Assembly: GCA_027366525.1 (NCBI GenBank) | Contig: DAHXKG010000005.1 | Span: forward strand, 2,575 to 66,574 | Reading direction: 5' to 3' | Length of the DNA: 64,000 nt | From: a candidate division FCPU426 bacterium | Lineage (GTDB): Bacteria; Oederibacteriota; Muellerivitia; Muellerivitales; DAHXKG01 | The notes under the pieces: generated by a model | Told to the model about the DNA's origin: nothing | What the model saw: the letters and a program-made list of their open reading frames with translations, nothing else | The model's database searches: none | Program-made: the position numbers and the translations under genes | Part shown: one piece after another, positions 21,586-57,264 of the stretch | How positions within the stretch are numbered: the first letter of the stretch is position 1 | Layout of the letters: each line of letters starts with the position of its first letter

Positions 21586-24234
21586 ATGATGTTAGATACG
21601 ACTCCCATGATGCGGCAGTATAAAGAGTTGAAAAAAGCGCATCCGAATGAAATTTTATTTTTCCGGTTGGGTGATTTTTATGAAATGTTCTTTGATGATG
21701 CTCAAACCGCTTCTCGCGTATTGCATTTAACCTTGACCTCGCGGGAGGGAGGACAAGGTCATCGGGTTCCGATGGCCGGTATTCCTTATCACATGGCCGA
21801 TAATTATATTGCGCGGTTGGTTAAAAATGGATTTTCAATTGCCATTTGTGATCAAACCGAGGATCCGGCAGTTGCCAAAGGGTTGGTCAAGCGGGAGATC
21901 GTTCGGGTAATCACGCCGGGAACGATTCTCTCGGAAACCCTGCTGGAACACAAAGTCAATAACTATTTAGTGGGATTGATTTGCTCCGAGTCGCAAATCG
22001 GAGTTGCTTGGGCCGATGTTTCGACAGGGGAATTCAAGGCTTTTGAAATATCAACCGAGAATCGCGCTTTAATCGTGACGGCAGAAATCTCCAAATTCAA
22101 TCCATCCGAAATCCTATTTCCAATGAACTCAAGCTTTCAAAAGGATTTGGAATCTATGGTGAAAACTGCTTCTAATGCTAAGCTCACGAAATGGGAAGAT
22201 TGGAAGTTTAATTTTGATGATACACAACAAGCCTTAAAAGATCATTTCCAAGTTCAAACGCTGGAGGGTATGGGATTATCCGCCCATCGATTAGCCATTC
22301 AAGCGGCTGGTGCAGTCTTGAAGTACCTTAAAGAAACTACGCATAGCGATTTGGCTCACATCAATACCTTGATACTGGATCATCCAGGGGAAGGAATGAT
22401 TTTAGATACAGCAACCCAACGCAACCTTGAAATTTTAAAAACGATGCGAGATGATGAGAAACAAGGCAGCCTTTTATCCGTGATGGATCAAACCATAACT
22501 TCCATGGGTGGAAGAGAATTGCGGCGTTGGTTGGTGAATCCACTCACCACGGTACCCCAAATTCGTGAGCGTCAAGATGCAATTGAAGAAGGCTTGATTC
22601 AGCGAGATTCCCGGGAACAAATCCGAAAAATATTCAAGGAAATTGCCGATCTTGAACGATTGATTGGACGCATTGGATGTGCATCGGCTAATGCCAGGGA
22701 TTTGATCGCATTGAGAAATACGATACGATATTTTCCCGCTCTTCAAGTGATCCAAGCTGGGTTTAAATCAGACCTTTTACGTCGGCAATTTGAAACGTGG
22801 GACAATCTCAAAGAGGTTTTACAGCTACTTGAGCAATCATTGATGGATGAACCCCCGTTAACTCTAAAGGAAGGAGGGTTGATTAAGCCGGGTTATCATG
22901 ACGAATTAGATCGTCTTCGAAAAGATGCCCATGAGGGGAAAAGCTTTATTACCACTTTGGAGGGAAAAGAACGCCAAAGAACCGGTATTCATTCTTTAAA
23001 AGTGCGTTATACGTCCGTGTTTGGGTATTATATTGAAGTTTCTAAGACCCATTTGAATAAAATTCCACCCGATTATTTCCGGAAACAAACGTTGGTCAAT
23101 GCAGACCGATTTGTTACGGCAGAACTCAAAGAGGCCGAAGGCAAAGTATTGGGGGCGCAGGATCGTGCCGATCAACTGGAATATGAAATTTTTCAGGCCA
23201 TTCGGTCACAAATTTCAAAAGATATGGCGCGTATTCAACGCATGGCGAGGCATCTTGCAGGTTTGGATGTTTATATGAGTCTGGCCGATTTGGCTGAAAA
23301 AAACCACTATAGCCGCCCGGAGATTGAAAATACGTCAGAGTTAATGATTGAAGAAGGAAAACATCCGGTTTTGAGCCAGTTGATTGCAACTGATCAATTT
23401 ATTCCCAATGATACTTGCTTAGGCTCAGAAGAGGCTCGCATCATGTTGTTAACCGGACCGAATATGGCGGGGAAAAGTACATACATTCGTCAAGTTGCGC
23501 TTTTGGTTTTGATGGCCCAAATGGGTTCCTTTGTTCCAGCCAAATATATGAAATTGGGGTTGGTGGATCGTATTTTTTCACGAGTAGGTGCTTCGGATAA
23601 TTTAGTGCAGGGTCAAAGTACTTTTATGGTCGAAATGATTGAAACTGCGAATATTTTAAACTATGCGACAAACAAAAGTTTGGTTATTCTAGATGAAATT
23701 GGTCGTGGAACATCCACCTATGATGGGATTGCGATTGCGTGGGCTGTTGTAGAATATTTATCTCAAAACATCCAGGCCCGAACGTTATTTGCTACGCACT
23801 ATCATGAGTTAACCCAACTTTCCAAGGAATTTAAAAATATTAAAAATTTCAATGTAGCCGTTCGAGAATGGAATGATCAAATTTTATTCTTGAGAAAGAT
23901 TGTTGAAGGAGGAACGGATAAGAGTTATGGGATTCATGTTGCACGATTGGCGGGCGTGCCCAAATGGGTCATTGAACGTTCTAAAAAGATATTAATATTG
24001 TTGGAATCAACGAATTCGTTAGCGAGCCAGTTAGAACAGAAAGATCGCGAGGTGACAAATCTTGAAGAACCTGAAGTGAAACGGTCGCAGCTTCCTTTAT
24101 TTGAATCTAAAATGCAACATCCGATTATCCAGGAATTAGAACGCATTCAGATTAATGAGATTACACCATTAATGGCGTTGAACTTAATTGAACAATGGAA
24201 AAGCAAAATATGGGATTTTAAAAATGATGCCTAA
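21586..24234 (+). CDS. mutS: DNA mismatch repair protein MutS
   Basis: 882 aa. Mismatch-binding N-terminus (GDFYEMFFDDA), Walker A GPNMAGKSTYIRQVAL, STFMVEM, DEIGRGTSTYDG. Confidence 0.95.
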   Translation: MMLDTTPMMRQYKELKKAHPNEILFFRLGDFYEMFFDDAQTASRVLHLTLTSREGGQGHRVPMAGIPYHMADNYIARLVKNGFSIAICDQTEDPAVAKGLVKREIVRVITPGTILSETLLEHKVNNYLVGLICSESQIGVAWADVSTGEFKAFEISTENRALIVTAEISKFNPSEILFPMNSSFQKDLESMVKTASNAKLTKWEDWKFNFDDTQQALKDHFQVQTLEGMGLSAHRLAIQAAGAVLKYLKETTHSDLAHINTLILDHPGEGMILDTATQRNLEILKTMRDDEKQGSLLSVMDQTITSMGGRELRRWLVNPLTTVPQIRERQDAIEEGLIQRDSREQIRKIFKEIADLERLIGRIGCASANARDLIALRNTIRYFPALQVIQAGFKSDLLRRQFETWDNLKEVLQLLEQSLMDEPPLTLKEGGLIKPGYHDELDRLRKDAHEGKSFITTLEGKERQRTGIHSLKVRYTSVFGYYIEVSKTHLNKIPPDYFRKQTLVNADRFVTAELKEAEGKVLGAQDRADQLEYEIFQAIRSQISKDMARIQRMARHLAGLDVYMSLADLAEKNHYSRPEIENTSELMIEEGKHPVLSQLIATDQFIPNDTCLGSEEARIMLLTGPNMAGKSTYIRQVALLVLMAQMGSFVPAKYMKLGLVDRIFSRVGASDNLVQGQSTFMVEMIETANILNYATNKSLVILDEIGRGTSTYDGIAIAWAVVEYLSQNIQARTLFATHYHELTQLSKEFKNIKNFNVAVREWNDQILFLRKIVEGGTDKSYGIHVARLAGVPKWVIERSKKILILLESTNSLASQLEQKDREVTNLEEPEVKRSQLPLFESKMQHPIIQELERIQINEITPLMALNLIEQWKSKIWDFKNDA

Positions 24235-24260: not shown

Positions 24261-27200
24261 ATGTTACGAAAAAAAAACAAACAACAGAAAAAAAAGCTTC
24301 TGTATGACTTCCAAGTTGAACTCGAAACGATCAATACGGAAACGGTGGTTGCTCGGGCTCTGCTTTTGCCAGGGTGTCAAGCTCAGGGAAAAAATGAACG
24401 TGAAGCGCTTGATCGTTTAAAAAGTGCCATTGAACTTTATCTTTTAGAATCAAAATCGTTTAGTTTTCGAAGCATTGAAGAGTTTCAGGATATTCCCATT
24501 ATCTATGCCTTGGTGGAATTCCGGGGATTTTTATTTGCCGCAACGAATCGGGATATGATTCTTAAATCCAAAAATACGTTTTTAGGATCTTGGATTCGAG
24601 TCGAACTAACTCAATCTCCCTCTAAATTTTTTAATCCTCACCGAACCGGTAAAAGTGATGCAGAAGGGGATTATGTTACTCAAATTTATACCTTGGGTAA
24701 ATTTTCTCCAGTGGGCAAACCTTTGCATCTCTATGCTGGAACCAATTTGAATGGGACAGCTTATCAAACAGAGGATGGAGAAAAGTGGGAAGAGGCTTTT
24801 TGTACCAACGAGGACCGCATTCATTGCTTGGTTCCATTTCGAGGAAAATTATATATTGGAACCAGTTCACAAGGAAAAATTTATGCATTTGATGGTTCAG
24901 TTTTAAAGCCAGCGGGAAGTTTAAATGAAACAGCCATAACGTGTATGGCTATCTATCACCAACAACTTTATATCGGAACTTATTCAAATGGGAATATTTA
25001 TGCCTCGCCGGATGGCCATGTTTGGAAATTGGTTGCTTCAACTGAGCAAACGTTTATTCAATGTTTGAAAGAATACCAAGGGGATCTTTATGCTGGAACT
25101 TCAAGTACGAAAGGCGTGGGTATTTTTAAGACGTCGAATGGCAAGGATTGGATGAAAGTTTATGAAAATCCTCAATTTCTCAATATCTATTCCATGGAAG
25201 TCTTTGGAAATGCGCTTTATGTGGGTTTAGGAAGTTCAAGTCGAATTCTAAGAACGGAAGATGGCATGAATTGGCAAACTGTTTATGCAGCGGATGAAGA
25301 AGGTGTAAGAGCATTTTGCCAGTTTGATGATTATCTATATGCAACGACGGAATTAAAAGGGAAGATCATCCGTTCAACTTTTGATAGCGGGTCGATTCCA
25401 GAAATTCGCGATGTTCAGATCGATGTTCAATCATCCAGTGAAGTGATTATTACCTGGAATACGAATATTCCGTCGACCTCCACCATTTATTATCGCGAGA
25501 AAAAAGAAAAAGAACCCGTTTATGATTTTGAATGGAAAATCAATCAATTGGATCGTGTGGAAAAACATGAAATGCGGATTTCAAATTTGAAAGCAGATCA
25601 GGAATATGAATGTCAGCTTATCAGCGCTAATCGGGAATCATCGGTCTCTAGCAAGATGGGTTTGAATTTCAAAACGAAACCCATTTTTCCGCCTCAAATT
25701 TCATCAACCACCCACCCTTCAAACCAGTGGAGTAATCAATCAAAAGCGGTATTCCAATTGGAATTTCCAGACGGGATTCAAGAATGTTGCTATTGCTTCA
25801 ATCAAAGCCCGGATGTTCTTTGGGATCAAATTGAATCCTTAATGACATCTGAAAAAACATTGGTTTTTGACACACCCCTGCAGGGAGTTTGGTATTTGCA
25901 TGTAATGGGTGTTGATGGCATCGGAAATCGAGGAGTTCAGACAACAGCGTATCGGTTTCAAGTCGATCTGGAAGCTTGGCCCCCGAGTGATGTTTCCTCA
26001 CCCACGCATCCAAATGCTCAGCAGTGGATTTCCAATGATAAACCCGTAATTCAATGGGTGCCTCCGGAAGATTTTTCAGGTATTAAAGGGTATTATTTAA
26101 AAGTTGATCAACTTGAATATACGATTCCGACCTCTGAAACAGGCGAATGGACAGAATCCAATTGTGTATCGCTGGGCTCCTTAGCAGATGGGATTTGGTA
26201 TGCGCATGTGATTACGGAAGATCAATCAGGCAATTTGGGAAATACCGCAGCTCATTTTCAATTTAAAATTGATACCCACGTATCGGCACCTGAAATTATT
26301 TCCATGACCCATCCAAGTAGCGATGTGTGGTATGCATCAAATCAAGTACAATTTCAGTGGCTGGAACCTCAAGATTTTTCAGGCATTGCCAAATATTATT
26401 ATCAATTTGATTCTGATTCTGAAAGTGAGGTGATTCCAAACCAGGAAAACGCCATAACGAAAAACCATTTTGAAATGAAAGACATTTCAGATGGTTTTTG
26501 GTATTTTCATTTGCGATCCCAAGATCAAGCTGGGAATATTTCCAAAACGACCAGTCATTTTAAAGTTTGTATTGATACATATGCTGCATCGCCAGTCATT
26601 ACTTCTCGGTCTCATCCACAGTCTCTGCACTGGAGTAATCAACCGCAAGCTGTTTTTCAATGGGAAGCGCCAACCGATGATTCAGGCGTTAAAGGATATT
26701 TCTTTATTTTGGATCAAAATTCAAAAACTCGACCCGATGAAAAAACAGGTATATGGACTGAACAACGTGAGTTGTCGATTCAAGTCATGGAAGATGGAAT
26801 ATGGTTTTTTCACTTGGTGATGAAAGACGCGGCAGGCAATCTCAGTGAACCAGATCATTATGAACTTCGAGTGGATACGCAAATTGCTCAACCTCAAATT
26901 CAATCGACCAGTCATCCCGATGAAAATAAATGGTACACGGTAACTCAAGCTGTTTTTCAATTGATTCCGCCGCCCGATTTATCGGGTATTGTTGGATTTT
27001 ATTACCAATTGGATACATCATCTGAAAATTTTGATGTGGATCAATCTAGTTTTTCAGAAGCTCCCAAAATTCAAATTCCCATTCAAGAAGAGGGTATTTA
27101 TTTTCTAAAAGTAGTTTGTAGGGATGCAGCTGGCAATAGGGGAAGCGTTCCCGCGTTATACCGAATCCAGTCTGATTTGAGAGTTCTTACTCCAATACTC

Positions 27201-29837
27201 CATTCGCCAAGTCATCCGGATCCTCAAAAATGGTATCGGTCTAAAAGCGTTCAAATCGTGATAGATGCTCCACCCGATTTATCAGGCATTTGGGGATATT
27301 ATGTCAAATTTGATCAAAATGAAGCTTATGAGTTTAATGAGACCCAAATGGAGTTTGTTCAGAAATCGGATTTTGAAATTGAGGTTTCAGGTGAAGGGAT
27401 TGGATTTATTCATGTTGTGGCACGCGATCAAGCGGGGAATATCAGCTCTGTCATTCACTTTAAAGTTCAAATTGCAATGGAAATTCTGCCACCTCAAGTT
27501 AAAAGTCCAACCCATCCGTTAGAACACTGGTCGAATCATCAATCGCCTATTTTCCAGTGGGAACCCCAAACTTCTTTATCAGAAGTTGAAGGATATTATT
27601 TTTTTATTGATTCTCAAGAAACAACGATACCTCAACCGGATCAAGCTCAATGGACAACAGAACTGCAATACAAATCGAATCCCTTACCGGAAGGGAAACA
27701 TTATTTCCATATTATTGCGAAGGATCGTGTGGGGAATCTAAGCATAAAAGCTTCCCACTATCCTATTTGGATCGATATTACGCCCCCTCATTCTAAAATG
27801 AATCCATTATCTCTATTTTCCAATCAATCCGAAATTCAGGTTTCTTGGGAAGCTGAAGATCCCTTCAGTGGTGTTGTGAATTATGATATCCAAGTAAAAG
27901 AAGGAATGAATGGAGTATGGCGAGATTGGTTAACGACCACGACTCAAACTTCTAGTACTTATTTGGCAGAATCTGGGAAAAAAACATTTTTCCGATGTCG
28001 TGCCCGAGATGGTGTCGGCAATGTCGGTGAATTTTCAAGTCAAGAAATCATTTCAACCACAGTGGATCTGACTCCACCTCCACCAGTGATTGAATTAAAG
28101 GCCACAGCACAACCATTAGGAAAAATTTTACTTCAATTTACTCCGGTTACTGATGAAATTTCAGGTACCGCTTTTTATCGAATTTATCGCTGGACACAAG
28201 TAGAAAACGATAAAAAACTTATTTCAACAGATGGTATGAATGTGCCAGAATATCTCGATTCGGATGAACAACTTAAGGATGGAACGACTTATTTTTATTG
28301 TGTTCAACCCGTGGATCATGTCGGGAATGAACAAATACAAGGCAACGCAACGGCGTCGGCAATTTCAGATCATTATGCTTTAACACCAATTGTGACAAGC
28401 ACAACGCATGTTTTGGGGGCTTGGAGTTCTAATCCGGTGGTGACCTTAAACTGGATGCCAGTTTTGGATGCATCAGGTATTTATGGATACTACTATATTT
28501 TAGATCAAAATGCGCAGACGGTAGTAGATCCAAAGAAAGCGCAATTTACAAAAGATCTAACATTTACAATGGGACCGCTGAAAAGTGGGCAATGGTTTTT
28601 TCATTTAATCATGCAAGATCGTGCCGGAAATTTAAGTCCTATAGCTCATAGTTGTATCAAGATTGATTCAGATCAACCGCAATCTCCGACCATTGTCTGC
28701 CTGACTCATCCAAACTCAAATCAGTGGTACACCAATGCTTCAGTTGAGTTTGAAATCATTCTTCCTGAAAAGCTTTCAGGCTGGGATGGTTATTATTATG
28801 TTTGGACACAAGAGAGCCGCACAGAATTGAATTCTCAAAATTCTACACGAAGTATTGAAAAGAAGTTAACGTTGAATATGGATAAAATTGGGAAATGGTA
28901 TTTGAAAATCATGGGACGAGATTTGGCAGGGAATTTTTCTAATGCTGTTCAATATGAAGTAAGCTACTCAGGACATTTTGGATCTCCTCCATCTATTTTT
29001 TGTTCAACGCATCCTCGGGAATCTAAGATTGAAACCAATAATTCTCCAGTGTTTATTTGGGAAGATAAGAAAACGGATCATTGGGTACCTTCAGGCTATG
29101 TATATAAGTTGAGCAAAAATGAATCTGAAATATTATCTATGCAGGATTCTTTCACTAAGGAAAAAACCATTAAATTTGAATCCTTGGAAGATGGCGTCTG
29201 GTTTTTCCATTTATCAACTGTGGATCAAAATGGAACTTTAAGTCCTTTGATTGCTAAGAAAAAAATAAGCATCCAACAAGCGATTTCTATTTCTGGAAAA
29301 TTTTTGTCTAAAAATGGTGTTCAGGGTATAGCTGGCATTCGCATAGAATGGTTACAGAATGACAAAGTGATAGGTACGATTGAAACGAATGCTAACGGGG
29401 AATTTTCTATTTTATTAACCTCTTCAGGAAAGCACGATTTGAAATTTTATGAACCCAATTTTCCGGTACTATGGTTAAAGAATATATTGATCACATTGGA
29501 TTCAATTACTGATCAATGGGTATTTTCAGAAGATCTTGGAATTTTTCCTGCTGTAGTGGATTCTGGTCCGGTTCAATTTTACTATTTTCTAAAAGAAGAT
29601 TGCAATGTGGTGATTGAAGTTTTTGATTCGAAAGGTGTTTTAATTCATAAATTAGAAGAGAAAAAATCCGGTGGATGTTATAACTATTCTATTTGGGATG
29701 CGAGTCCTTATACTACAGGTGAATATCTTTATAAATTGACAGCCAAAAGTATTTTAAAGGGATCGATGTCGAGGTTTAATATTAAAAAGTTTAAAATTAA
29801 TAAAAAACAAAAAATGATGATTGAAGCAATGAAGTGA
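24261..29837 (+). CDS. giant (1,858 aa) multi-domain repeat protein: HicB-like N-terminus, beta-propeller, FN3, ~12 tandem ~100-aa repeats, CarbopepD-like domain, FlgD-Ig/T9SS-like C-terminal domain
   Basis: Single uninterrupted frame. N-terminal 70 aa match HicB/UPF0150 antitoxin fold signature (LLLPGCQAQGKNEREALDRLKSAIELYL). Blades of GKLYIGTSS.G.IY...DG..W. Repeats with consensus S.THP....W.SN....FQWE.P.D.SG..GYYY..DQ...DG.W(F/Y)FH....D.AGNLS. C-terminal domain similar to those of the 37,777-52,357 proteins. No N-terminal signal peptide. Confidence 0.7.
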   Translation: MLRKKNKQQKKKLLYDFQVELETINTETVVARALLLPGCQAQGKNEREALDRLKSAIELYLLESKSFSFRSIEEFQDIPIIYALVEFRGFLFAATNRDMILKSKNTFLGSWIRVELTQSPSKFFNPHRTGKSDAEGDYVTQIYTLGKFSPVGKPLHLYAGTNLNGTAYQTEDGEKWEEAFCTNEDRIHCLVPFRGKLYIGTSSQGKIYAFDGSVLKPAGSLNETAITCMAIYHQQLYIGTYSNGNIYASPDGHVWKLVASTEQTFIQCLKEYQGDLYAGTSSTKGVGIFKTSNGKDWMKVYENPQFLNIYSMEVFGNALYVGLGSSSRILRTEDGMNWQTVYAADEEGVRAFCQFDDYLYATTELKGKIIRSTFDSGSIPEIRDVQIDVQSSSEVIITWNTNIPSTSTIYYREKKEKEPVYDFEWKINQLDRVEKHEMRISNLKADQEYECQLISANRESSVSSKMGLNFKTKPIFPPQISSTTHPSNQWSNQSKAVFQLEFPDGIQECCYCFNQSPDVLWDQIESLMTSEKTLVFDTPLQGVWYLHVMGVDGIGNRGVQTTAYRFQVDLEAWPPSDVSSPTHPNAQQWISNDKPVIQWVPPEDFSGIKGYYLKVDQLEYTIPTSETGEWTESNCVSLGSLADGIWYAHVITEDQSGNLGNTAAHFQFKIDTHVSAPEIISMTHPSSDVWYASNQVQFQWLEPQDFSGIAKYYYQFDSDSESEVIPNQENAITKNHFEMKDISDGFWYFHLRSQDQAGNISKTTSHFKVCIDTYAASPVITSRSHPQSLHWSNQPQAVFQWEAPTDDSGVKGYFFILDQNSKTRPDEKTGIWTEQRELSIQVMEDGIWFFHLVMKDAAGNLSEPDHYELRVDTQIAQPQIQSTSHPDENKWYTVTQAVFQLIPPPDLSGIVGFYYQLDTSSENFDVDQSSFSEAPKIQIPIQEEGIYFLKVVCRDAAGNRGSVPALYRIQSDLRVLTPILHSPSHPDPQKWYRSKSVQIVIDAPPDLSGIWGYYVKFDQNEAYEFNETQMEFVQKSDFEIEVSGEGIGFIHVVARDQAGNISSVIHFKVQIAMEILPPQVKSPTHPLEHWSNHQSPIFQWEPQTSLSEVEGYYFFIDSQETTIPQPDQAQWTTELQYKSNPLPEGKHYFHIIAKDRVGNLSIKASHYPIWIDITPPHSKMNPLSLFSNQSEIQVSWEAEDPFSGVVNYDIQVKEGMNGVWRDWLTTTTQTSSTYLAESGKKTFFRCRARDGVGNVGEFSSQEIISTTVDLTPPPPVIELKATAQPLGKILLQFTPVTDEISGTAFYRIYRWTQVENDKKLISTDGMNVPEYLDSDEQLKDGTTYFYCVQPVDHVGNEQIQGNATASAISDHYALTPIVTSTTHVLGAWSSNPVVTLNWMPVLDASGIYGYYYILDQNAQTVVDPKKAQFTKDLTFTMGPLKSGQWFFHLIMQDRAGNLSPIAHSCIKIDSDQPQSPTIVCLTHPNSNQWYTNASVEFEIILPEKLSGWDGYYYVWTQESRTELNSQNSTRSIEKKLTLNMDKIGKWYLKIMGRDLAGNFSNAVQYEVSYSGHFGSPPSIFCSTHPRESKIETNNSPVFIWEDKKTDHWVPSGYVYKLSKNESEILSMQDSFTKEKTIKFESLEDGVWFFHLSTVDQNGTLSPLIAKKKISIQQAISISGKFLSKNGVQGIAGIRIEWLQNDKVIGTIETNANGEFSILLTSSGKHDLKFYEPNFPVLWLKNILITLDSITDQWVFSEDLGIFPAVVDSGPVQFYYFLKEDCNVVIEVFDSKGVLIHKLEEKKSGGCYNYSIWDASPYTTGEYLYKLTAKSILKGSMSRFNIKKFKINKKQKMMIEAMK

Positions 29838-29909: not shown

Positions 29910-29987
29910 GGGGTTGTAGCTCAGCTTGGTTAGAGCGCCTGCCTGTCACGCAGGAGGTCGCGGGTTCGAGCCCCGTCAACCCCGCCA
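29910..29987 (+). tRNA. tRNA-Asp (anticodon GTC), with encoded CCA
   Basis: GGGGTTG acceptor stem pairs with CAACCCC. D-loop AGCTCAGCTTGGTTAGAGC. Anticodon stem CCTGC/GCAGG with loop CTGTCAC. T-arm GGGTTCGAGCCCC. Discriminator G + CCA. Confidence 0.9.
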
Positions 29988-30350: not shown

Positions 30351-30971
30351 ATGAATACGGCGACCAAAGCAAAAACCTATGAAAGGGCCATCAAGGTCTT
30401 CAAGACCCATGGAGGGCTCCTGTCCTCGACAGAGGCCATTCAGGCGGGCATCCATCCAAGGGACCTTTACGCCATGAGGGATGCCAAACTGCTCGAACAG
30501 ATGAGCCGGGGGCTTTACCGCCTTTCGGATATGCCTTCCCTCGAAAACCCAGACCTTGTGACGGTAGCCAAGCGAGTGCCAAAGGGGGTCCTTTGCCTGA
30601 TCTCGGCTCTTGCCCTTCATGAGCTGACCACCCAAATACCCCATGAGGTTTATGTGGCGCTCAAGATGGGGGCGAGAATCCACCGGCTGGAAAACCTGCC
30701 TCTTCGGATTTTTCATTTTTCCGGTAAGGCTTTTACGGAAGGGATTGAGGAACGAAAGGTGGATGGGGTGGCCTTCCGGGTTTATTCCAAGGAAAAAACC
30801 CTAGCAGATTGTTTCAAATATCGGAATGTCGTTGGGATGGATACGGCGCTGGAGGCCCTCCGTAATTATTGGAAGAGCCGGGGGAAGAATATGGATAAGC
30901 TTACCCATTTTTCGAAAATCTGCCGTGTCGAAAACGTCATGCGGCCTTATTTGGAGACCATTCAAGAATGA
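30351..30971 (+). CDS. abiEi: AbiEi-family antitoxin (type IV TA / abortive infection)
   Basis: 206 aa. N-terminal winged-HTH pattern (YERAIKVFKTHGGLLSSTEAIQAGIHPRDLYAMRDAKLLEQMSRGLYRL) typical of AbiEi. ATGA-overlapped with downstream DUF1814 NTase gene. GC-rich relative to flanks. Confidence 0.75.
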   Translation: MNTATKAKTYERAIKVFKTHGGLLSSTEAIQAGIHPRDLYAMRDAKLLEQMSRGLYRLSDMPSLENPDLVTVAKRVPKGVLCLISALALHELTTQIPHEVYVALKMGARIHRLENLPLRIFHFSGKAFTEGIEERKVDGVAFRVYSKEKTLADCFKYRNVVGMDTALEALRNYWKSRGKNMDKLTHFSKICRVENVMRPYLETIQE

Positions 30972-31894
30972 AAAAACCCATCGTCAATATGGCGGCCTCG
31001 GTCCACCAGCGGCTCCTGAACATGGCCCAAAAGACAAAGCGGCCTTTCAATGAGCTACTTCAGTATTACGCCATGGAGAGATTTCTCTATCGCCTTTCCA
31101 AGTCCAAATATTCGAATAGCTTCATCCTGAAAGGGGCCCTTCTGTTCAAAGCCTGGGAAGTAGCCGATTCCAGGGCCACCATAGACATCGATCTTCTCGG
31201 AAGGTTGAAGAATGAAACGAAACATATTGCCCAAGTCGTAAAGGAGATTTGTTCCCGTGATGATGATCATGATGATGGTCTTCGTTTTGACCCTGCCACG
31301 GTAAAGGCTTCAAGAATCGTGGAGGGCGCGGATTATCATGGCGTCAGGGTGAAGTTTCGCGGCTACTTGGGCAATGCTCAAATACCCATGCAGATCGACA
31401 TAGGATTTGGGGACCTCATAATGGCTGGACCTATTCCGTTGGTATATCCCACACTCTTGGATCTTCCGGCGCCCCATCTCAAAGGCTACAGGCCGGAAAA
31501 CACGATTGCCGAAAAATTCGAGACCATGTGCAAGAGGGGAACGGCCAATAGCCGAATGAAGGACTTTTTCGATATTTGGCTTTTGGCTAGAAGGTTTAAC
31601 TTTGATGGGACCAAGCTGTCCAGGGCCATTAAGGAAACCTTTGAGAACCGCCACATGGAAATCCCAATGGAGCCCCTAGCTTTGAGCACAGATTTTTCGC
31701 GGGACAAGACTAAAGCAACACAATGGAAAGCTTTCGTGAAAAAGAGCCGGTTACCCCATGCGCCTTCCAGCTTTACCCTGATAGTAAAGGTGCTAAGAAG
31801 TTTTTTGGGACCGATTGCAAAGACCCTGAACGTGAAGAAGAACTTCACTGGAAGGTGGAAAGCATCAGGCCCCTGGAAGGGTTTAAAGAAATGA
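30968..31894 (+). CDS. abiEii: AbiEii/AbiGii-family nucleotidyltransferase toxin (DUF1814)
   Basis: 308 aa. N-terminus ASVHQRLLNMAQKTKRPFNELLQYYAMERFLYRLSKSKYSNSFILKGALLFKAWEVADSRATIDIDLLGR matches the DUF1814 NTase signature (GS...DxD). Confidence 0.8.
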   Translation: MKKPIVNMAASVHQRLLNMAQKTKRPFNELLQYYAMERFLYRLSKSKYSNSFILKGALLFKAWEVADSRATIDIDLLGRLKNETKHIAQVVKEICSRDDDHDDGLRFDPATVKASRIVEGADYHGVRVKFRGYLGNAQIPMQIDIGFGDLIMAGPIPLVYPTLLDLPAPHLKGYRPENTIAEKFETMCKRGTANSRMKDFFDIWLLARRFNFDGTKLSRAIKETFENRHMEIPMEPLALSTDFSRDKTKATQWKAFVKKSRLPHAPSSFTLIVKVLRSFLGPIAKTLNVKKNFTGRWKASGPWKGLKK

Positions 31895-37776: not shown

Positions 37777-40700
37777 TTATTGAAGAATAATAAGTTTAGT
37801 GATGAACCGACCGGATGAAGTATTCACGACTAAATAATAGAGTCCATTGGCTAAAGGTACATGACTTATATCCAAAGGCGTAATCCGAATGATCGACGCG
37901 CCACTTGGGAAAGAACCAAAATCTTGACTGAATATCTTTCGGAATGCGGTTGTGAATATCTGTATCGTTAAGGAATTAACAGACTGGGGTAAAGAAATTT
38001 GTACTTGAAGTGGACCATCACCAAGATATGGATTTGGAAATGGAAGTGCAGACAAATGCTGGATCACAGGTGTGGGGCTTAAGGCATTTTGGAGGATGGG
38101 AGTTGGACTTAAAATGGGTGTCGGTGTGCTGGTTGATGTAAATATGGGAGTCATTGTTTGCGTGGGTGATGTTGTTAAGGTGGGTGTGAAGGTATTTATT
38201 TTAGTAAATGTTGGAGTTGGAGTCAAAGTATAGGTTGGTGTGGAAGTAGTAGTCAAGGTTGGGCTCCATGTAGGAGTGGGTGATAAGGTCAAGGTTACAG
38301 TTGGTGTGGGGGTTGTTGTATCGGTGAATGTGGGCGTAAAGGTAGTCGTATCTGTGGGGGTTAAAGTCAAAGTGTCAGTAGGAAACGGAGTTGATGTTAA
38401 GGTAGGTGAAAATGTCGAGGTTAGGGTAGGGGTGGTTGTCCAAGTCGGTGTTGACGTTTGAGTTGGAGATGAAGTGATGGTTGGAGTTAACGTTGAAGTT
38501 ATTGTCCAAGTCGAGGTTGGGGTAGCTGTAAAAGTATTTGTGGGTGAAGAAGTCGGGGTTGAAGTAGGCGTGGAAGTGAGCGTGGGAGTATAGGTTAAGG
38601 TGGGGGTTGGAGTCTGAGTGGGAGACGGAGTGGATGTTTCGGTTGAAGTAAAAGTGGCCGTTGAAGTCGGCGTCATGGTAGAAGAAGGCGTAGTGGTAGG
38701 CGTGCACTGAATATTATCGTTGACAATTTCAATTCCAGTCACTTCCGCATTATCCTTGGTAGGAACTTCTAAGATATCAATGAGTTGATTGGTTACGGGA
38801 ACGACAAAACTTCGATTATAGGCGGCATATTGTCCAACTTCGGCATAAATATCTAAATTGGTAATGACAGTAACGCCGTTGATCATGACGCTAAAAATCC
38901 GATCATTGGAAGCCGTCCAATATTGCTCCACGAATCGAAGATTAACGGTATAGGTCCCATTGGTGGGAACGGTAAATTTATATTCAACTGGATTGCCGTA
39001 TCGTTCTGTTTGATAAATCGTTGGATTTTTGGTTCCGGAGATTGCATTGGTGATAGTGGCAGCTTGAGTATTGGTTCCTACATAGCCAAACCCACCCGTA
39101 GTATAAGCCTGATCGGGAGACCACGTTCGTCCGAGATTGTCGATATAACCAGTTGTTCCACCTAAACCACAATCAATTCGGATCATGGATTGAGCACAAG
39201 GATTTTCAGTGGGTGTAGGAGTGGGTGGAGGGGTTGGGGTGTTGGTGGGTGTAGGGGTGCACGTGTAGGGAGCACAAGGATTAGGAGCAGTATCATAAGC
39301 TTCTTTTACGGCCCATACGGTATTGGCACGCATATAATAATGTGCACGAACATTTTGAACACCTGAAGTCCAAGCTTCGGGTGTTCGAAACCAAAGTTGG
39401 GCGGTATTCCAAATGGTGTTATAAAGGCTATAGCCAATTTGAGTCGCTTGCGTATTCATGCCAAGTTGGATCATGCCAGCTACAACGCCCCAGGCGGTTC
39501 CCACCCAAGCTTCTTGTGTTTGTGAGGACGAGGTATCAATCGCACCTGCGGCGGTCATGACATTAACCACGCCGTCAGCTCCATTATCAAAAAGTTTATA
39601 GTTATTGTTATAAATCGTTTGAAAAGCACTGATGGCATCGGCGGTAGGAACAATGCTAGGGAGTCCGCAGGCTTCCGCATACCATTCGCCGCATAATTGA
39701 TCATCCATAATACGGGTATCGGCTGGTGGCGTATTCGTTGTACTGTAGTCAATATCATAATAGGTGTTGTTCCACAAGAGCGACTGATAACTGGCTTGTC
39801 CGGTATTAAACCAGCTGGTATAGGATGTGGCAGTGGTTGTATTCCCTTCGGCCGTTGCAATTTGTTCTGCCGCTTCACAGGCGGCGAGAAAGAGTCCACC
39901 ACAGTAAGCGGTATCGCCGGTGAGCGACATGTTGTCGTAGGTTTGATCAACTCCCGAGCTAATTGGAAGTCCGGTGGCATCACATTGACTATGGACTTTA
40001 TTCATAGCGACTTGAACAGCCGGCCAGCAATAATTAAGAAAAGCCGTGTCGGTTTTTCCTGTAATTTCCCAATCCCGGTAAACCATGAGGACAAATTTGG
40101 AATTCAAATCTTTCCAAGTTGTGGTATCGCGATAGGTATAAGCATTCCATTGAGTAAAGCAAGTATTGAGGTCACCCAAATCATGAGCGCAGGTTCCAAT
40201 AGCAGCCGGATAGAAACTTTGAGAGTTAATTAAGCTATTGCTAAATTCTTTTACACATTGTTTATCCAAATTAGGCCAAAGCATAATTAAGGGCCAAGAA
40301 CTATAAAATCGTACATCCGAGGTTTCATAGTAGGGATAAATATAACTTTCCAAATGAGCAAACATATCATCACTGGGATTGGTGTTGGTGGGTTGACCTG
40401 AAGCACCACCGGCTTCCCACATGGTTCCGCTGGTAAAAAGTTCATAGAGTTCATTGAATAAATCGGTTTTTAACCAATCCGGATAAAGTCCATTATTTAG
40501 AATTTGATTCTGCCAGGTTGTGATGGAGGTGTCCCAAGTGGGGTAGTTATTAAGCGCATCATTGGCAATGGCCCACGAATTGCGTCCAGTTTGTCCATAA
40601 TACCGAGTATATTCTCGGTACCATAAATCCCCGGTCCCGCCATCAGCGGCAGCAGGTTCCGCTAACGGAATATCCCAAGACAAAACGATGGGCACCACAA

Positions 40701-41568
40701 TGGATTGCCCAGCTGATAGAGTGGTGGTAAAGGCAATGCCCCCGATAGCATTATTCCCAACGGTATTGTTGAGCTGTCCGGTACTGATAAATTGACTTTG
40801 AAGAGTTTGAATTGTAGTCGCTGATTGGTATGTGATGGTTACCGAGGTACTGGATTGACTGGCTAAACAGAACTCACCTTGAGTTTGATCAGTGGCATTT
40901 CCCGTTCCAGTGCGTGTTAAGATCAGGCCCACGTTGTTATTGACTTGGGTAACGGCAGCTACGCCACCTCCAAAGGTATTGTCCCAAGTGAGCATAACGG
41001 ATACGGTAGTTGGCAGAGAGGTGGGATTGCTGATGGCCCATTTATAAATAGCAACCGGATAAGAGGAACGTTGATAATCATTGGGAATGATCGGACTAAA
41101 TTGTGTGACTGTGGCAGGACATGAAAAAAGATTGCCAGTGTAAGTAACCCATGCTTTGGGGAACAGAGCATAATAAGTGGCTTGACCTGTGCCTAGCGTA
41201 GCCCCATTAAGTTTTTCAGCTGTGGGAGTTCCTCCTTGAGGTTGTTCAAACAAATAAAAATCACAATTGGTATCAACGGTTTGATTATTACTTCCAATAT
41301 TTAATCGACCCAGATAAAAATCACCACTGTACATCCAAGTGATTGTGCCTGCTCCAAATCCACCGATGGGGGCTCCATCATCGTAACCACTGGAACCAAC
41401 ATCTCGACTCCAAGCTTGGGAGGGAATGACTTGAGCATGGAGGCGACTTGCGATTAATCCTGAAAGAATTAATAATAAAAAAATAATTTGAATACGAGCT
41501 GGAATTGAAAAAATTTTTTTTATTGTCATTATTTTAATTTTATCATAAAGCAGAAAATTCAAAGACAA
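37777..41568 (-). CDS. secreted glycoside hydrolase-like protein (GH116/GBA2-like (alpha/alpha)6 candidate) + malectin carbohydrate-binding domain + Thr/Pro linker + C-terminal sorting domain
   Basis: 1,263 aa. Signal peptide (IFLLLILSGLIASRLHAQ). Malectin signature (IRIDCGLGG...W..D..Y...IYQTERYG...YTVNLRFVEQ...RIFSVMINGVTVITNLDIYAEVG). ~210-aa TPT/STP linker. C-terminal ~90 aa similar to the C-terminal domains of neighbouring genes. GH family assignment is tentative. Confidence 0.6.
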   Translation of the reverse strand: MSLNFLLYDKIKIMTIKKIFSIPARIQIIFLLLILSGLIASRLHAQVIPSQAWSRDVGSSGYDDGAPIGGFGAGTITWMYSGDFYLGRLNIGSNNQTVDTNCDFYLFEQPQGGTPTAEKLNGATLGTGQATYYALFPKAWVTYTGNLFSCPATVTQFSPIIPNDYQRSSYPVAIYKWAISNPTSLPTTVSVMLTWDNTFGGGVAAVTQVNNNVGLILTRTGTGNATDQTQGEFCLASQSSTSVTITYQSATTIQTLQSQFISTGQLNNTVGNNAIGGIAFTTTLSAGQSIVVPIVLSWDIPLAEPAAADGGTGDLWYREYTRYYGQTGRNSWAIANDALNNYPTWDTSITTWQNQILNNGLYPDWLKTDLFNELYELFTSGTMWEAGGASGQPTNTNPSDDMFAHLESYIYPYYETSDVRFYSSWPLIMLWPNLDKQCVKEFSNSLINSQSFYPAAIGTCAHDLGDLNTCFTQWNAYTYRDTTTWKDLNSKFVLMVYRDWEITGKTDTAFLNYCWPAVQVAMNKVHSQCDATGLPISSGVDQTYDNMSLTGDTAYCGGLFLAACEAAEQIATAEGNTTTATSYTSWFNTGQASYQSLLWNNTYYDIDYSTTNTPPADTRIMDDQLCGEWYAEACGLPSIVPTADAISAFQTIYNNNYKLFDNGADGVVNVMTAAGAIDTSSSQTQEAWVGTAWGVVAGMIQLGMNTQATQIGYSLYNTIWNTAQLWFRTPEAWTSGVQNVRAHYYMRANTVWAVKEAYDTAPNPCAPYTCTPTPTNTPTPPPTPTPTENPCAQSMIRIDCGLGGTTGYIDNLGRTWSPDQAYTTGGFGYVGTNTQAATITNAISGTKNPTIYQTERYGNPVEYKFTVPTNGTYTVNLRFVEQYWTASNDRIFSVMINGVTVITNLDIYAEVGQYAAYNRSFVVPVTNQLIDILEVPTKDNAEVTGIEIVNDNIQCTPTTTPSSTMTPTSTATFTSTETSTPSPTQTPTPTLTYTPTLTSTPTSTPTSSPTNTFTATPTSTWTITSTLTPTITSSPTQTSTPTWTTTPTLTSTFSPTLTSTPFPTDTLTLTPTDTTTFTPTFTDTTTPTPTVTLTLSPTPTWSPTLTTTSTPTYTLTPTPTFTKINTFTPTLTTSPTQTMTPIFTSTSTPTPILSPTPILQNALSPTPVIQHLSALPFPNPYLGDGPLQVQISLPQSVNSLTIQIFTTAFRKIFSQDFGSFPSGASIIRITPLDISHVPLANGLYYLVVNTSSGRFITKLIILQ
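38075..38705. repeat. low-complexity Thr/Pro/Ser-codon tandem repeat (linker-coding) within 37777-41568
   Basis: Reiterated ACN-CCN codon units. Generates spurious ORFs on other frames (38240-38461, 38375-38707). Confidence 0.8.
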
Positions 41569-43122
41569 AATTGATTGAAGTGCTTTAACGATACACTAAC
41601 TTAAAATTAAAGTTGGATCAGTTTCAAAAAAAAATTTTTTGAAGTGGTCAGTTGTTCAAAATAGCAGGACGATAAAAATCAAATACTAATGAATGAAAAC
41701 GAAATCACAAAATAAAAGAAAACGAGTTCAAATAATTCATTTCAAAAATATTTTTCAGTACACGTTGAACTGGGTTTTAAAAAATCAAGTGACCAGATCC
41801 GTTCAAATGAGTACCGAAAATCAGAAAGGAATTGTTAAGGAAGTGTTGACTGAAATTTAATTCAAATATGAAATTTTGAATTAAATTTGGAGTTGGATCG
41901 TGGGTTCGGACGAGAGGATTTAATCCATTTTCAATTTATGTGAACAGGGCATGAAAATAACATGATAGGAAAATGAAGTTTCGTGATTCATTTTTAAAAA
42001 GTTGATCGGGTATGAAAAAGTGAATAATTAAGTGCAGGGAACGCATAGGAATTTATGACTTGCCGGCAGGGTTTTTTTGGTTTTTTAAACAAAGGACATC
42101 CAATACATTGATTCGTTTAGAGAAATGAGTTGTGTAAAAATCAAATTCAATTTAGAAATTTTGAACATAAGTTTGATAATAAAATCAAGGGACGAGAATT
42201 CTAAAATTAAAGTCATTGATCGTGTCTTTTTTTAAAAAATTGGACCTCTCCTGATTTGAAATTTCTGAACCCAGCGTTAAATCCGTTGTTACGCCGGGCG
42301 AGAGGATTTCCCGTGAGTTGTGACCTGAATGGGCAATGCAGTATTCGTGTAATATCCTTGCATAACTTCACTAGAATATTCGCTCGATTGGGAAAAGAGG
42401 AATCAACCCAGAGTGCCTGTATCAAGAAGGCTAGGAGTTGCAGATAGGACGTTTCATTCATAAAGGAGATCAAAATTTTGGAGGTTAAGCCAAATTTCAA
42501 ACTACCGTTCAGGGTAGGAAATCCTTCTAAAATTGATGAGTGGAATCATTGGGATGCGGGAATGGATCGAGAAATTTGATGATCGAAAAATTGTATCTTG
42601 GATGAATTTTTTTAAAAGAGGAATTAGTGGCGGGGTTGAGAGGCGTGAAGAACGGGGCCATAAAGTCAGGGGGCTTCATGAATACAATGCAAGAGTTTTT
42701 AAGGACGAATTTGATTGAACAGTTGGATAGAACTTTGTGTAACGATAAAATACTTTGATCCATAGAAAATTCAAAGATCTTATTCAGTGATGCGATGCAC
42801 GGATTCACTTCGATTTTAAAAATATCGCGGAAAGTTTTCAAAAAGAAAACCGGCAAGAAAAATTGCATTCATAAATCTTTTTGAGCACTCAAAAAAAGTC
42901 ACATGAGGTTAACGGTTTCCTTGGATTCAAGATCCACATGACGTGGTCAACGATTTCCTAATTTCACTAGTTCAGTTTATTCCAAAAACAGAGAACTATG
43001 ATAATCTTCATATTGCAGTCATTATTTTTAAAAATAAATGCTCAAAGGATGTACATATAAACACGCATAAATTTGAGCAATGAATGGATGAATTTATAGT
43101 TTGATTTTGAATTAAGGTTGCT

Positions 43123-46100: not shown

Positions 46101-46236
46101 CAATCCAGGTATGAATGCAGCAGTTTATAATGCGCAAGGACTGGCCAGCGGCTTGTATTTGGCAGTGGTTGATATTGTCGATAGTGAAGGTCATTTTATT
46201 GGAAGACAAGTTGTTAAGTTTGTGGTCATCCATTGA
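43123..46236 (+). CDS. secreted protein: Cys-rich N-terminal domain + TPT linker + DUF11-like domain + 3x FlgD-Ig-like domains (C-terminal sorting-type domain)
   Basis: 1,037 aa. Signal peptide. ~210-aa T-P-T linker. DUF11-like ([22 protein letters not shown]...[15 protein letters not shown]). Three repeats with [18 protein letters not shown] / [18 protein letters not shown] / [11 protein letters not shown] (FlgD Ig-like pattern). Confidence 0.65.
44311..44940. repeat. Thr/Pro-codon tandem repeat (linker-coding, ~24-nt periodicity TFTPTNTP)
   Basis: Repeated ACG CCC ACG / ACC CCG ACC units. Source of spurious antisense/alt-frame ORFs 44088-45038. Confidence 0.85.
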
Positions 46237-46416
46237 GGATGACGGCAGTCATCATTCATTTTGATTGGGTGACGCTGATAAATCCCAAAGATCAAACGGG
46301 TTAGAAACGATATTGAATTGCAGGGAAAAGTAAATTAAAATATTTTTCATCTTCAGAATTTTATTCCTATCAACCCTTAAATCCAACATCAGACTCTGAA
46401 TCAGGAGCTCAATTAG

Positions 46417-49400: not shown

Positions 49401-49509
49401 TAATGTCGCTGGTTTAGCTAGTGGATTGTATTTTGCAGTGGTCAGTCTGAAAGATGCTCAAGGAGATCAACTTGGCCGCCAGGTCGTAAAAGTGGTATTA
49501 CTCCATTAG
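46417..49509 (+). CDS. paralogous secreted protein: distinct N-terminal domain + TPT linker + DUF11-like + 3x FlgD-Ig-like domains
   Basis: 1,030 aa. Signal peptide. Same post-linker architecture and near-identical motifs ([21 protein letters not shown]-terminal [32 protein letters not shown]) as 43123-46236. Confidence 0.65.
47481..48210. repeat. Thr/Pro-codon tandem repeat (linker-coding)
   Basis: As above. Spurious ORFs 47388-47831(-), 47628-48224(+). Confidence 0.85.
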
Positions 49510-49612
49510 CCGTCATATTTAATTTTTCAAACTATGGTACAATTAACAGTTAAGGTTGTGTTTGGGAAATTTAAAACAACGTGGGATAACGAATAAGGGA
49601 TTTTTCTAAAGC

Positions 49613-54212: not shown

Positions 54213-54214
54213 AT

Positions 54215-57207: not shown

Positions 57208-57264
57208 ATTCACTCATTTCTGTTCGATATGTTACATGGGTTAATATTCTGATATGGAAATTAG

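Follow-up and report, generated by a model that had tools for sequence, protein, structure and literature searches.

A HicB-fold domain at the head of a conserved, leaderless giant beta-repeat protein from candidate division FCPU426

HicB antitoxins (PF15919, PF21748; 2dsy, 6g1c, 6hpb/6u0i) are small proteins with a partial RNase H-like beta-beta-beta-alpha core and an LPGC motif, which possess a C-terminal DNA-binding domain of the ribbon-helix-helix (RHH) or helix-turn-helix (HTH) type for autoregulation and have a hicA partner. The cargo of the type IX secretion system (T9SS; PF18962, PF13860, CHU_C) consists of large multidomain beta proteins with a terminal sandwich of around 90 amino acids (aa) and requires a Sec signal peptide. 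Giant adhesins of type I secretion systems (T1SS), such as LapA, MpIBP, SiiE and MhLap, lack a leader and are composed of a folded N-terminal module, an array of Ig/FN3 domains of around 100 aa and a conserved C-terminal end. Repeat units of around 100 aa are also found in Leptospira OmpL47 (NF047441/NF047446) and Big_13 proteins, and seven-bladed propellers with a GxLYxGT-type motif in the DUF6242, Ycf48-like and Reg_prop families. Here, we describe a gene of a candidate division FCPU426 bacterium, a member of an NCBI phylum-rank taxon, which is located at positions 24261..29837 of the plus strand in a stretch of 64,000 nucleotides (nt) of contig DAHXKG010000005.1 (the window). Its product of 1858 aa, hereafter the giant protein, starts with a HicB-like domain, which makes up the first 4% of the chain and passes directly into a propeller, followed by an FN3-type repeat array and a beta-sandwich resembling the C-terminal domain (CTD) of T9SS cargo.

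The giant protein combines features of known kinds of protein in a new domain architecture. It shares the core and the LPGC motif with HicB antitoxins, but fails three of their four defining features, namely the small size, the RHH/HTH domain and the hicA partner. Its large beta build and terminal sandwich are those of T9SS cargo as represented by the GH116, GH5 and DUF11 proteins encoded in the same window; however, the giant protein has no Sec signal peptide and a sub-threshold CTD, and its FCPU426-type orthologues carry a 12-residue tail after the last strand. The overall layout of the T1SS giant adhesins is also shared, with weak profile matches to the Ig-like domains of Lap (6xi3) and of entry 2yn3, but the giant protein has no RTX repeats, no neighbouring genes for an ABC transporter, a membrane fusion protein and an outer-membrane protein (ABC/MFP/OMP), many cysteines and no conserved C-terminal signal. 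While the repeat unit exceeds the domain cutoffs of the OmpL47-type and Big_13 families, the full-length equivalog NF047441 reaches only 27.8 of the 250 bits required, and the HicB cap, the propeller and the CTD are additions. A search of the literature returned no description of this architecture, of HicB fusions or of leaderless T9SS cargo.

The gene is one genuine, lineage-conserved gene. The large single reading frame at 24261..29837 reported in the first-pass annotation, an earlier reading of the window from its letters, is present, with an ATG start, 1858 codons and a stop, and an identical protein of 1858 aa is already deposited in public collections as 'hypothetical protein'. The complete five-domain mutS gene (21586..24234) ends 26 nt before the ATG. 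Because of this and of an in-frame TGA at 24225-24227, there is no upstream coding room for a signal peptide. Scans for promoters and terminators gave nothing beyond shuffle expectation. The gene and its parts are as follows (HMM, hidden Markov model; pLDDT, per-residue confidence of the AlphaFold2 models):

24225-24227, plus strand: in-frame TGA, read directly from the sequence; the next start codon is at 24261
24261..29837, plus strand: whole giant gene, 1858 aa, without signal peptide and without transmembrane segment
24261..24308, plus strand: Lys-rich N-terminal tail, residues 1-16 (MLRKKNKQQKKKLLYD), predicted to be disordered (pLDDT <50 in a 380-residue model)
24309..24458, plus strand: HicB/UPF0150-fold domain, residues ~17-66 (Pfam, profile search, AlphaFold2, Foldseek)
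24465..25385, plus strand: seven-blade beta-propeller, residues ~69-375 (AlphaFold2 model, blade motif, Foldseek)
25404..25646, plus strand: FN3 / purple-acid-phosphatase-N type domain, residues 382-462 (Pfam)
25695..27791, plus strand: seven tandem FN3-like repeats of ~100 aa, residues 479-1177 (self-HMM 1e-35 to 1e-43)
27792..28388, plus strand: divergent, Big_3_3-like repeat (residues ~1182-1267) and putative FN3-like domain (~1275-1376)
28389..29291, plus strand: three more canonical THP/FN3-like repeats, residues 1377-1677 (self-HMM 1.8e-36 to 6.5e-39)
29286..29501, plus strand: CarboxypepD_reg-like beta-sandwich, residues 1676-1747 (PF13620, E=0.015, sub-threshold)
29523..29798, plus strand: FlgD_ig / T9SS-CTD-like beta-sandwich, residues ~1755-1846 (Pfam matches of orthologues, PDB profile)
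29799-29837, plus strand: Lys-rich C-terminal tail of 12 residues, up to the stop

The HicB/UPF0150 signature that had been noticed in residues 34-61 is real; it is sub-threshold when the window protein is considered alone, but becomes firm with orthologue profiles and the predicted structure. UPF0150 (PF21748) matches residues 23-62 with E=5.7e-4 and 20.2 bits, below the gathering score of 27.3. Among 17 orthologous N-termini, 12 match PF21748 (best E 7.7e-5) and 11 match PF15919 (HicB_lk_antitox), all of them sub-threshold; the distant family member P0127, however, exceeds the gathering score of PF15919 with 32.5 bits versus 27. A phmmer search with residues 1-95 against 1.84 billion representative proteins returned orthologues and a set of small proteins (P0130-P0137), seven of which are recognised by the Pfam models UPF0150 and HicB_lk_antitox, with five of them reaching or exceeding a gathering score. 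Outside the orthologue group, the profile of the 17 N-termini retrieved from 5.8 billion proteins only PF15919 proteins of 54-73 aa (E 1.6e-5 to 5.6e-3), two of them annotated as 'type II toxin-antitoxin system HicB family antitoxin'. The motif LPGC-x3-G-x4-EAL-x2-L-x2-AI-x-LY is common to the giant protein and HicB antitoxins. Two members of the family bear the label 'predicted RNase H-like HicB family nuclease' from the JGI pipeline. A match in P0129 (1029 aa, '9 stretches'), which looked like a tandem HicB array, was rejected as a coiled-coil/low-complexity false match.

Structure prediction is in line with the sequence comparisons. An AlphaFold2 model of residues 1-80, calculated with the orthologue alignment, has a pLDDT of around 90 over residues 20-60 and contains, in this order, beta1 (19-25), beta2 (28-33), the LPGC turn, beta3 (40-43) and alpha1 (46-66). 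TTHA0281 (2dsy) is the structural prototype of UPF0150. It is the top PDB sequence match of the N-terminus profile, albeit weak (E=0.2), and Foldseek recovers it from the PDB with a probability of 1.00, a root-mean-square deviation of 1.6-2.3 A and 31-33% identity. The HicB N-terminal domains 6g1c, 6u0i, 6hpb and 6g26 are matched as well, with probabilities of 0.99-1.00 to 2dsy and 6g1c, and a HicB-family antitoxin and a 'HicB family' nuclease are among the first four matches in a viral structure library. More distant fold neighbours are double-stranded-RNA-binding domains and the phage sponge Acb4. Profiles and models together thus indicate that the N-terminus is homologous to the HicB N-terminal domain and adopts the same predicted fold.

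Despite this homology, the giant protein is not a working HicAB antitoxin. Pfam and NCBIfam scans gave no match to an RHH/HTH DNA-binding domain, and residues 69 onward form the propeller. Since mutS ends 26 nt upstream and a tRNA-Asp gene begins 73 nt downstream, a hicA could not be accommodated on either side. None of the loci has a hicA next to the giant gene, and no conserved small partner gene was found in about 25 orthologous loci. In studied systems, the HicB N-terminal domain alone is sufficient to inhibit HicA (summarised in PMC13621843), and the giant protein has retained the fold and the LPGC...G...EAL motif; the N-terminal domain might therefore neutralise a HicA encoded elsewhere in the genome. 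Such a function in trans is very unlikely, as another 1,780 residues follow in the same polypeptide, the fusion has persisted across lineages and the domain evolves like a structural module.

The fusion of the HicB-like domain to the giant, surface-type protein, one of several options offered by the first-pass annotation, is borne out by the orthologues. A tblastn scan of one genome per GTDB species with residues 1-380 as query revealed 26 genome loci with 47-56% identity. Candidate division FCPU426 is the label of many of these and Candidatus Firestonebacteria that of one, several labels being evidently loose. At least 20 orthologues from metagenome-assembled genomes keep the frame, the N-terminus and the CTD, and the same in-frame fusion is found in around 20 species-level orthologues and in two distant relatives. 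The start after the upstream stop is conserved as M-(K/R)-K-D-x-K-x-Q-K-K-x-F-P-Y-(D/E)-F-x-V-E-L-E-T...LPGCQAQG, no variation is seen at K4 and K11 in the alignment of close relatives, and Shine-Dalgarno-like motifs are located 6-12 nt before this start in several orthologues. Over the 58 codons of the HicB-like region, 171 orthologue pairs differ at codon positions 1/2/3 with frequencies of 0.22/0.13/0.52, and it follows that the region is translated and under purifying selection.

Alternatively, a sequencing error or a lost stop codon could have merged a small hicB gene with a downstream gene encoding a signal peptide, or the true start could be internal. No support was found for such an artefact, which is refuted to the extent that sequence data permit and has a practically negligible probability: no fewer than 20 independent assemblies, produced in different studies and with different technologies, contain the same continuous frame, the linker of residues 61-80 is conserved without any leader-like stretch, and the HicB-like region shows the codon-position pattern given above. 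The comparison with orthologues, which the earlier annotation had proposed, did not reveal a single case in which the HicB-like part is a genuine separate open reading frame (ORF). Split copies are limited to L020, L024 and L001/L022 and look like assembly artefacts. In L001/L022 (1640-1680, contig_20586), the gene is cut at 343 aa at a poly-A chimeric junction, while the first pieces of L020 (10004-10240, 78 aa) and L024 (10001-10750, 249 aa), both from MFD-labelled bins, seem to end through a one-base length difference or a frame switch, and tblastn nonetheless aligns residues 1-380 in both. It is the 78-aa piece of L020 that appears to mimic a 'separate hicB gene'.

The length of the family is almost fixed at around 1844-1880 aa. 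The 16 complete orthologues from the scan have 1847-1944 aa, 13 of them falling within 1847-1880 aa, and outlying lengths reflect upstream start calls (L002, 1944 aa); P0124, P0125, P0127 and P0128, which stem from other searches, have 1844-1875 aa. Two further orthologues of about 2465-2469 aa (L012 9971-17380, L019 10001-17398) are around 600 aa longer, presumably because of additional repeats, and contain a variant HicB-like motif (EAWCPLLPGCKAQG). The distant relatives P0127 (1844 aa) and P0159 (2158 aa) are located in other gene neighbourhoods and keep the HicB-like start without a leader, the propeller, the repeats and the CTD-like end, which shows that the architecture from HicB to CTD is old; the N-terminal tail (residues 1-16) is not conserved in them. 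When 14 complete orthologues are compared with the window protein, identity amounts to 56% over residues 1-50, 46-58% in the propeller, 27-48% in the repeats and 57-59% in the C-terminal sandwich, where conservation is highest. The values for MutS, MiaB and a TPR-SPOR protein in these genomes are 61%, 57% and 29%, respectively. Both ends of the protein are thus as constrained as housekeeping enzymes, whereas the repeats evolve faster and their number is held constant. Constrained ends and a fixed repeat number fit a structural part of set geometry better than a fast-evolving adhesin.

The propeller, which had previously been counted as having five to six blades, has seven. In the AlphaFold2 model, pLDDT exceeds 90 over most of the domain, and 27 strands (81-372) together with strand 69-74 add up to seven blades of four strands each, and the sequence itself shows the motif xLYxGTxxxGxIY seven times. 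Judging from the strand count, strand 69-74, which comes immediately behind the HicB helix, is probably the fourth strand that completes the last blade. Foldseek returns generic propellers of seven or eight blades, with virginiamycin B lyase as the best target (TM-score 0.84) and Ycf48, BamB and WD40 proteins among the others, and relatives carry PF25852 (DUF6242_C, from precomputed tables) or PF07494. Among the non-orthologous propeller relatives that were read, the nearest one with its start kept, P0007 (406 aa), differs in having a leader-like N-terminus, followed by a Cys-rich segment, and no HicB-like domain. Cys-rich (CxxCH-like) segments precede the propeller in both P0007 and P0010, and in P0012 the propeller is combined with a phage baseplate-wedge domain (PF11041).

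An FN3 domain had been annotated behind the propeller, and it is found at residues 382-462 (Pur_ac_phosph_N E=4.9e-7, 30.7 bits with a gathering score of 30; fn3 E=5.8e-5); in addition, the repeats themselves turn out to be FN3-like. They follow the pattern S-x-T-H-P...W...SGI-GYYY...DG-WYFH...D-AGN and, from sequence comparison, are FN3-type domains with an S-x-T-H-P...W extension at the N-terminus. Their profile matches titin FN3 arrays, the chitinase A1 FN3 domain and entry 2yn3, which we take to be Salmonella SiiE, in the PDB, and the repeat unit scores 76.8 bits against a cutoff of 27 with Big_13 and 51 bits against a cutoff of 40 with the OmpL47-type NCBIfam domain NF047446. The earlier annotation had described around 12 divergent repeats of about 100 aa; the array is there, but the count is ten canonical units, one divergent unit and one FN3-like domain. 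The divergent unit is weakly recognised by the self-HMM (E=5e-7) and matches Big_3_3 (E=5e-4) and, over residues 1178-1261, the chitinase A1 FN3 domain of the PDB (E=0.12), while residues ~1275-1376 were judged by eye to be a probable FN3-like domain. The CarbopepD-like domain of the earlier annotation receives weak support: PF13620 is sub-threshold in the window protein, but is carried by the close relatives P0138 and P0139 in precomputed tables, and one orthologue is named 'carboxypeptidase regulatory-like domain-containing protein' by NCBI. A PDB sequence search with the whole protein gave nothing significant. A phage origin was considered and rejected, as tblastn against 50,697 phage records yielded only repeat matches of 22% identity to Salmonella sequences named 'BNR/Asp-box repeat protein'.

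The C-terminal sandwich resembles the sorting domains of T9SS cargo. In the orthologues, FlgD_ig matches 11 of 11 CTDs (best E 4.8e-5), Por_Secre_tail 7 of 11 (best E 8.2e-5) and CHU_C 4 of 11; the window protein itself gives E=0.028 with FlgD_ig and E=0.068 with Por_Secre_tail, and no NCBIfam model matches its CTD. Against the PDB, the CTD profile finds the C-terminal region of P. gingivalis PorU (6za2, residues 1057-1136 of 1156; E=0.024), and its best match are the Ig-like domains of 'Large adhesion protein (Lap)' (6xi3). The C-terminal 199 aa retrieved only two fragments of orthologues from the set of 5.8 billion proteins. In P0127 and P0159, the CTD-like end stops exactly at the C-terminus, and that of P0159 holds a WPNP motif.

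Four proteins encoded further downstream in the window bear, or were grouped with those bearing, such a C-terminal domain and serve as a reference for the start of the giant protein:

37777-41568, minus strand: GH116 and malectin protein with a leader and a C-terminal match of the FlgD_ig/Por_Secre_tail/CHU_C type
43123-46236 and 46417-49509: paralogues of ~1030 aa with leaders and internal and terminal FlgD_ig/Por_Secre_tail-like matches; one contains DUF11
49613-52357: GH5 cellulase with a leader and no CTD match at E<=0.01

The GH5 cellulase was grouped with the CTD proteins solely via its tail, which is 36% identical to that of the GH116 protein. Leaders and transmembrane segments were called with a Kyte-Doolittle (KD) hydrophobicity heuristic and not with a trained signal-peptide predictor. 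As the first-pass annotation had stated, all four neighbours start with strongly hydrophobic leaders (best 11-residue KD windows of 2.8-3.1, long uncharged runs), and the giant protein does not: its best 11-residue window in the first 60 aa reaches 1.76 and falls on the HicB motif VVARALLLPGC. A leader-like segment was found after none of the 27 ATG, GTG or TTG codons among the first 500 codons, and Sec, Tat or lipoprotein signals were detected neither at the start nor after internal starts. An unannotated internal start, which had been suggested as well, is refuted by this result and by the Shine-Dalgarno-like motifs ahead of the conserved start in several orthologues. The whole protein has no transmembrane-like window (top 19-residue KD of 1.24), and a hydrophobic leader is also absent in all orthologues. 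The sequence 'LLPGC' could be mistaken for a lipoprotein signal, but the 25 preceding residues carry D, E and R without a hydrophobic core; as LPGC is, moreover, the family motif of cytoplasmic HicB proteins, this reading was rejected. Thus, by the same heuristic, the giant protein lacks the cleavable Sec signal peptide of T9SS cargo. Without a Sec or Tat signal it cannot use the route inferred for the signal-peptide-plus-CTD neighbours (Sec, then T9SS), and, if extracytoplasmic, would have to take a Sec-independent path or be released.

Taking these results together, we consider it about an even bet (probability around 0.5) that the giant protein is a conserved leaderless protein whose HicB cap has been exapted for docking and which acts as an extracytoplasmic strut or adhesin reached via a Sec-independent path. 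The structural part of this combined reading is near certain; localisation and role are proposed tentatively. UPF0150 proteins are small oligomers, and HicB N-terminal domains are protein binders. The HicB fold might have been exapted as a cap for protein docking or oligomerisation, which would form a conserved binding 'head' together with the propeller, while the FN3 array would serve as a rigid stalk of set length and the CTD-like sandwich as a second conserved contact at the end that attaches to the envelope. The giant protein would be exported or displayed by a Sec-independent path, or released. The domain content, comprising FN3, Big_13, OmpL47-type and CarboxypepD_reg domains, and the leader-like start of the propeller relative P0007 point to an extracytoplasmic structural protein of adhesin or strut type.

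A number of observations weigh against this combined reading. An export signal of any known type was not found, and RTX repeats and adjacent transporter genes are also absent. To our knowledge, every known HicB/UPF0150 protein is cytoplasmic, and the docking role of the cap is pure conjecture. The pLDDT of the HicB domain is only 48-61 in the 380-residue model, and the blade-closing role of strand 69-74 was deduced from the strand count and not from the coordinates. All CTD matches are below the curated gathering scores, so that the 'sorting-type' label and the surface location given in the first-pass annotation remain deductions from domain content. The same annotation had seen one and the same sandwich in the giant protein and its four neighbours; they do share a Pfam neighbourhood, but are not closely related, as hhalign aligns the expected strands with a probability of only 8.8%. 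Finally, the Lys-rich C-terminal tail is absent in P0127 and P0159, and consequently there is no conserved extreme C-terminal signal.

Several of these points would be explained if the giant protein stayed in the cytoplasm as a scaffold or ruler, with the HicB cap binding a protein, RNA or nucleotide ligand and the CTD-like sandwich being just another Ig-like domain. The missing Sec, Tat, lipoprotein and transmembrane segments in all orthologues, the cytoplasmic nature of the known HicB/UPF0150 proteins, the almost fixed length and the position among housekeeping genes, beside mutS or, in L028, mutL, agree with such a scaffold, as does the fold match to Acb4, a phage HicB-fold protein that binds cyclic dinucleotides. 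The protein contains 20 cysteines, but the conserved ones are isolated singles, and conserved disulfide pairs are thus absent; the cysteine content as such is uninformative for localisation, since the secreted neighbours have as much. On the other hand, nearly all domains are of the FN3, Big, CarboxypepD_reg and FlgD_ig types, which are overwhelmingly extracytoplasmic in bacteria, the propeller relative P0007 starts with a leader-like segment, and the repeat body is acidic (isoelectric point (pI) 4.9), which is typical of surface arrays. A cytoplasmic scaffold is rather unlikely, but is a serious rival. Either the beta domains form a large scaffold inside the cell, or the giant protein is exported or anchored by a route missed by current predictors, and both outcomes bear on how surface proteomes of uncultured bacteria are read.

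It is improbable that the giant protein is instead a leaderless adhesin of the T1SS type, like LapA, MpIBP or SiiE, which would leave the cell C-terminus first, with the fast-folding module of HicB and the propeller as a retention plug holding the protein in the channel of the outer membrane and the FN3 domains as the extender. The leaderless giant size, the tandem Ig/FN3-type units of around 100 aa and the conserved folded modules at both ends would suit such an adhesin, and so would the two PDB matches, the Lap Ig-like region for the CTD profile and 2yn3 for the repeats. However, GG.G.D (RTX GGxGxD) repeats have no match anywhere in the protein, the 20 cysteines and a pI of 5.2 for the whole protein, rather than around 4, do not fit, and the missing tail in P0127 and P0159 leaves no conserved signal at the extreme C-terminus. 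Furthermore, conserved ABC/MFP/OMP genes were found beside the giant gene in none of about 25 loci; an RND/OEP set located 3 kb from the gene in L032 is not conserved elsewhere.

Going one step further within the combined reading, the HicB cap and the propeller could be the recognition or retention module of an undescribed Sec-independent route for the export or anchoring of a giant CTD-bearing envelope protein. This extension is doubtful; if true, candidate division FCPU426 and two or more further lineages would share such a route, and a toxin-antitoxin fold would have taken the place of the signal peptide in targeting or anchoring the protein from its N-terminus. If the combined reading itself is true, the use of the HicB/UPF0150 fold is widened from an antitoxin to a lasting N-terminal part of a giant protein with a structural role, which is under housekeeping-level constraint across many species-level genomes of an uncultured phylum, and the family represents an artefact-free case of 'outside-the-cell' domains and a sorting-type end without an export signal.

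The gene neighbourhood was surveyed in three lineages. Upstream of the giant gene, the order TPR protein, 95-aa protein, miaB, TPR/SPOR protein and mutS is kept, while the downstream side varies between loci and starts in the window with the following features:

29910-29987: tRNA-Asp(GTC), 73 nt downstream of the giant gene
30351-31894: AbiEi/AbiEii toxin-antitoxin pair, after the tRNA-Asp gene

At the corresponding position, other orthologous loci contain tyrosine integrases and other variable cargo, and the downstream side looks like a tRNA-linked integration hot spot and not like a region of functional partners. In L028 (7337-15535), the relative is divergent to a gene for a metallo-beta-lactamase-fold protein (Lactamase_B), mutL and miaA, and a PorV-like gene is located 13 kb away. 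The family thus adjoins mismatch-repair genes in two arrangements, since it follows mutS in the FCPU426-type loci and lies near mutL in L028, which may be coincidence or old synteny.

P0159 (JGI 3300050821; L029 679-7155) is encoded directly downstream of a flagellar cluster consisting of a flgG-like gene, flgA, flgH, flgI, a Rod-binding (flgJ-like) gene, two small ORFs, flgK and the genes for a 536-aa and a 467-aa protein, the latter of which ends in an FN3 domain. This context, the leaderless start with a disordered N-terminal tail and the FlgD_ig match as the best one of the CTD raise the question of whether the giant protein is a substrate of flagellar or other type III export, with the tail as signal and an end of hook- or cap-related origin. 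Such a substrate is highly improbable: the flagellar context is limited to one locus, the FCPU426-type genes following mutS and that of L028 lying near mutL; conservation of the N-terminal tail does not extend to P0127 and P0159; a folded HicB domain and a seven-blade propeller are an implausible type III passenger; and many CTD proteins without a flagellar role, among them the neighbours in the window, have domains of the FlgD_ig type. The neighbourhoods of L028 and P0159 are regarded as leads only.

As to the remainder of the window, the cluster at 37777-52357 suggests a set of CTD-dependent, surface-located proteins for polysaccharide degradation. It is directly followed by a set of genes for ABC_tran, an ABC-2 permease, ABC_transp_aux (GldG-like) and DUF4340 proteins (52558-57207) and then by tatC (52558-58068 in total), and this set might be linked to the export of the CTD proteins. 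As to T9SS machinery, the GldG-like cluster of the window and the PorV-like gene of L028 were noted, neither of them being decisive. The public names of the giant-protein family, which range from 'hypothetical' and 'carboxypeptidase regulatory-like' to 'HicB family nuclease', are inconsistent and could be corrected. At 8845-10461, the window further encodes a Ycf48/PSII_BNR-like propeller protein of 538 aa in a non-photosynthetic context, and at 2162-4330 a type III glutamine synthetase.

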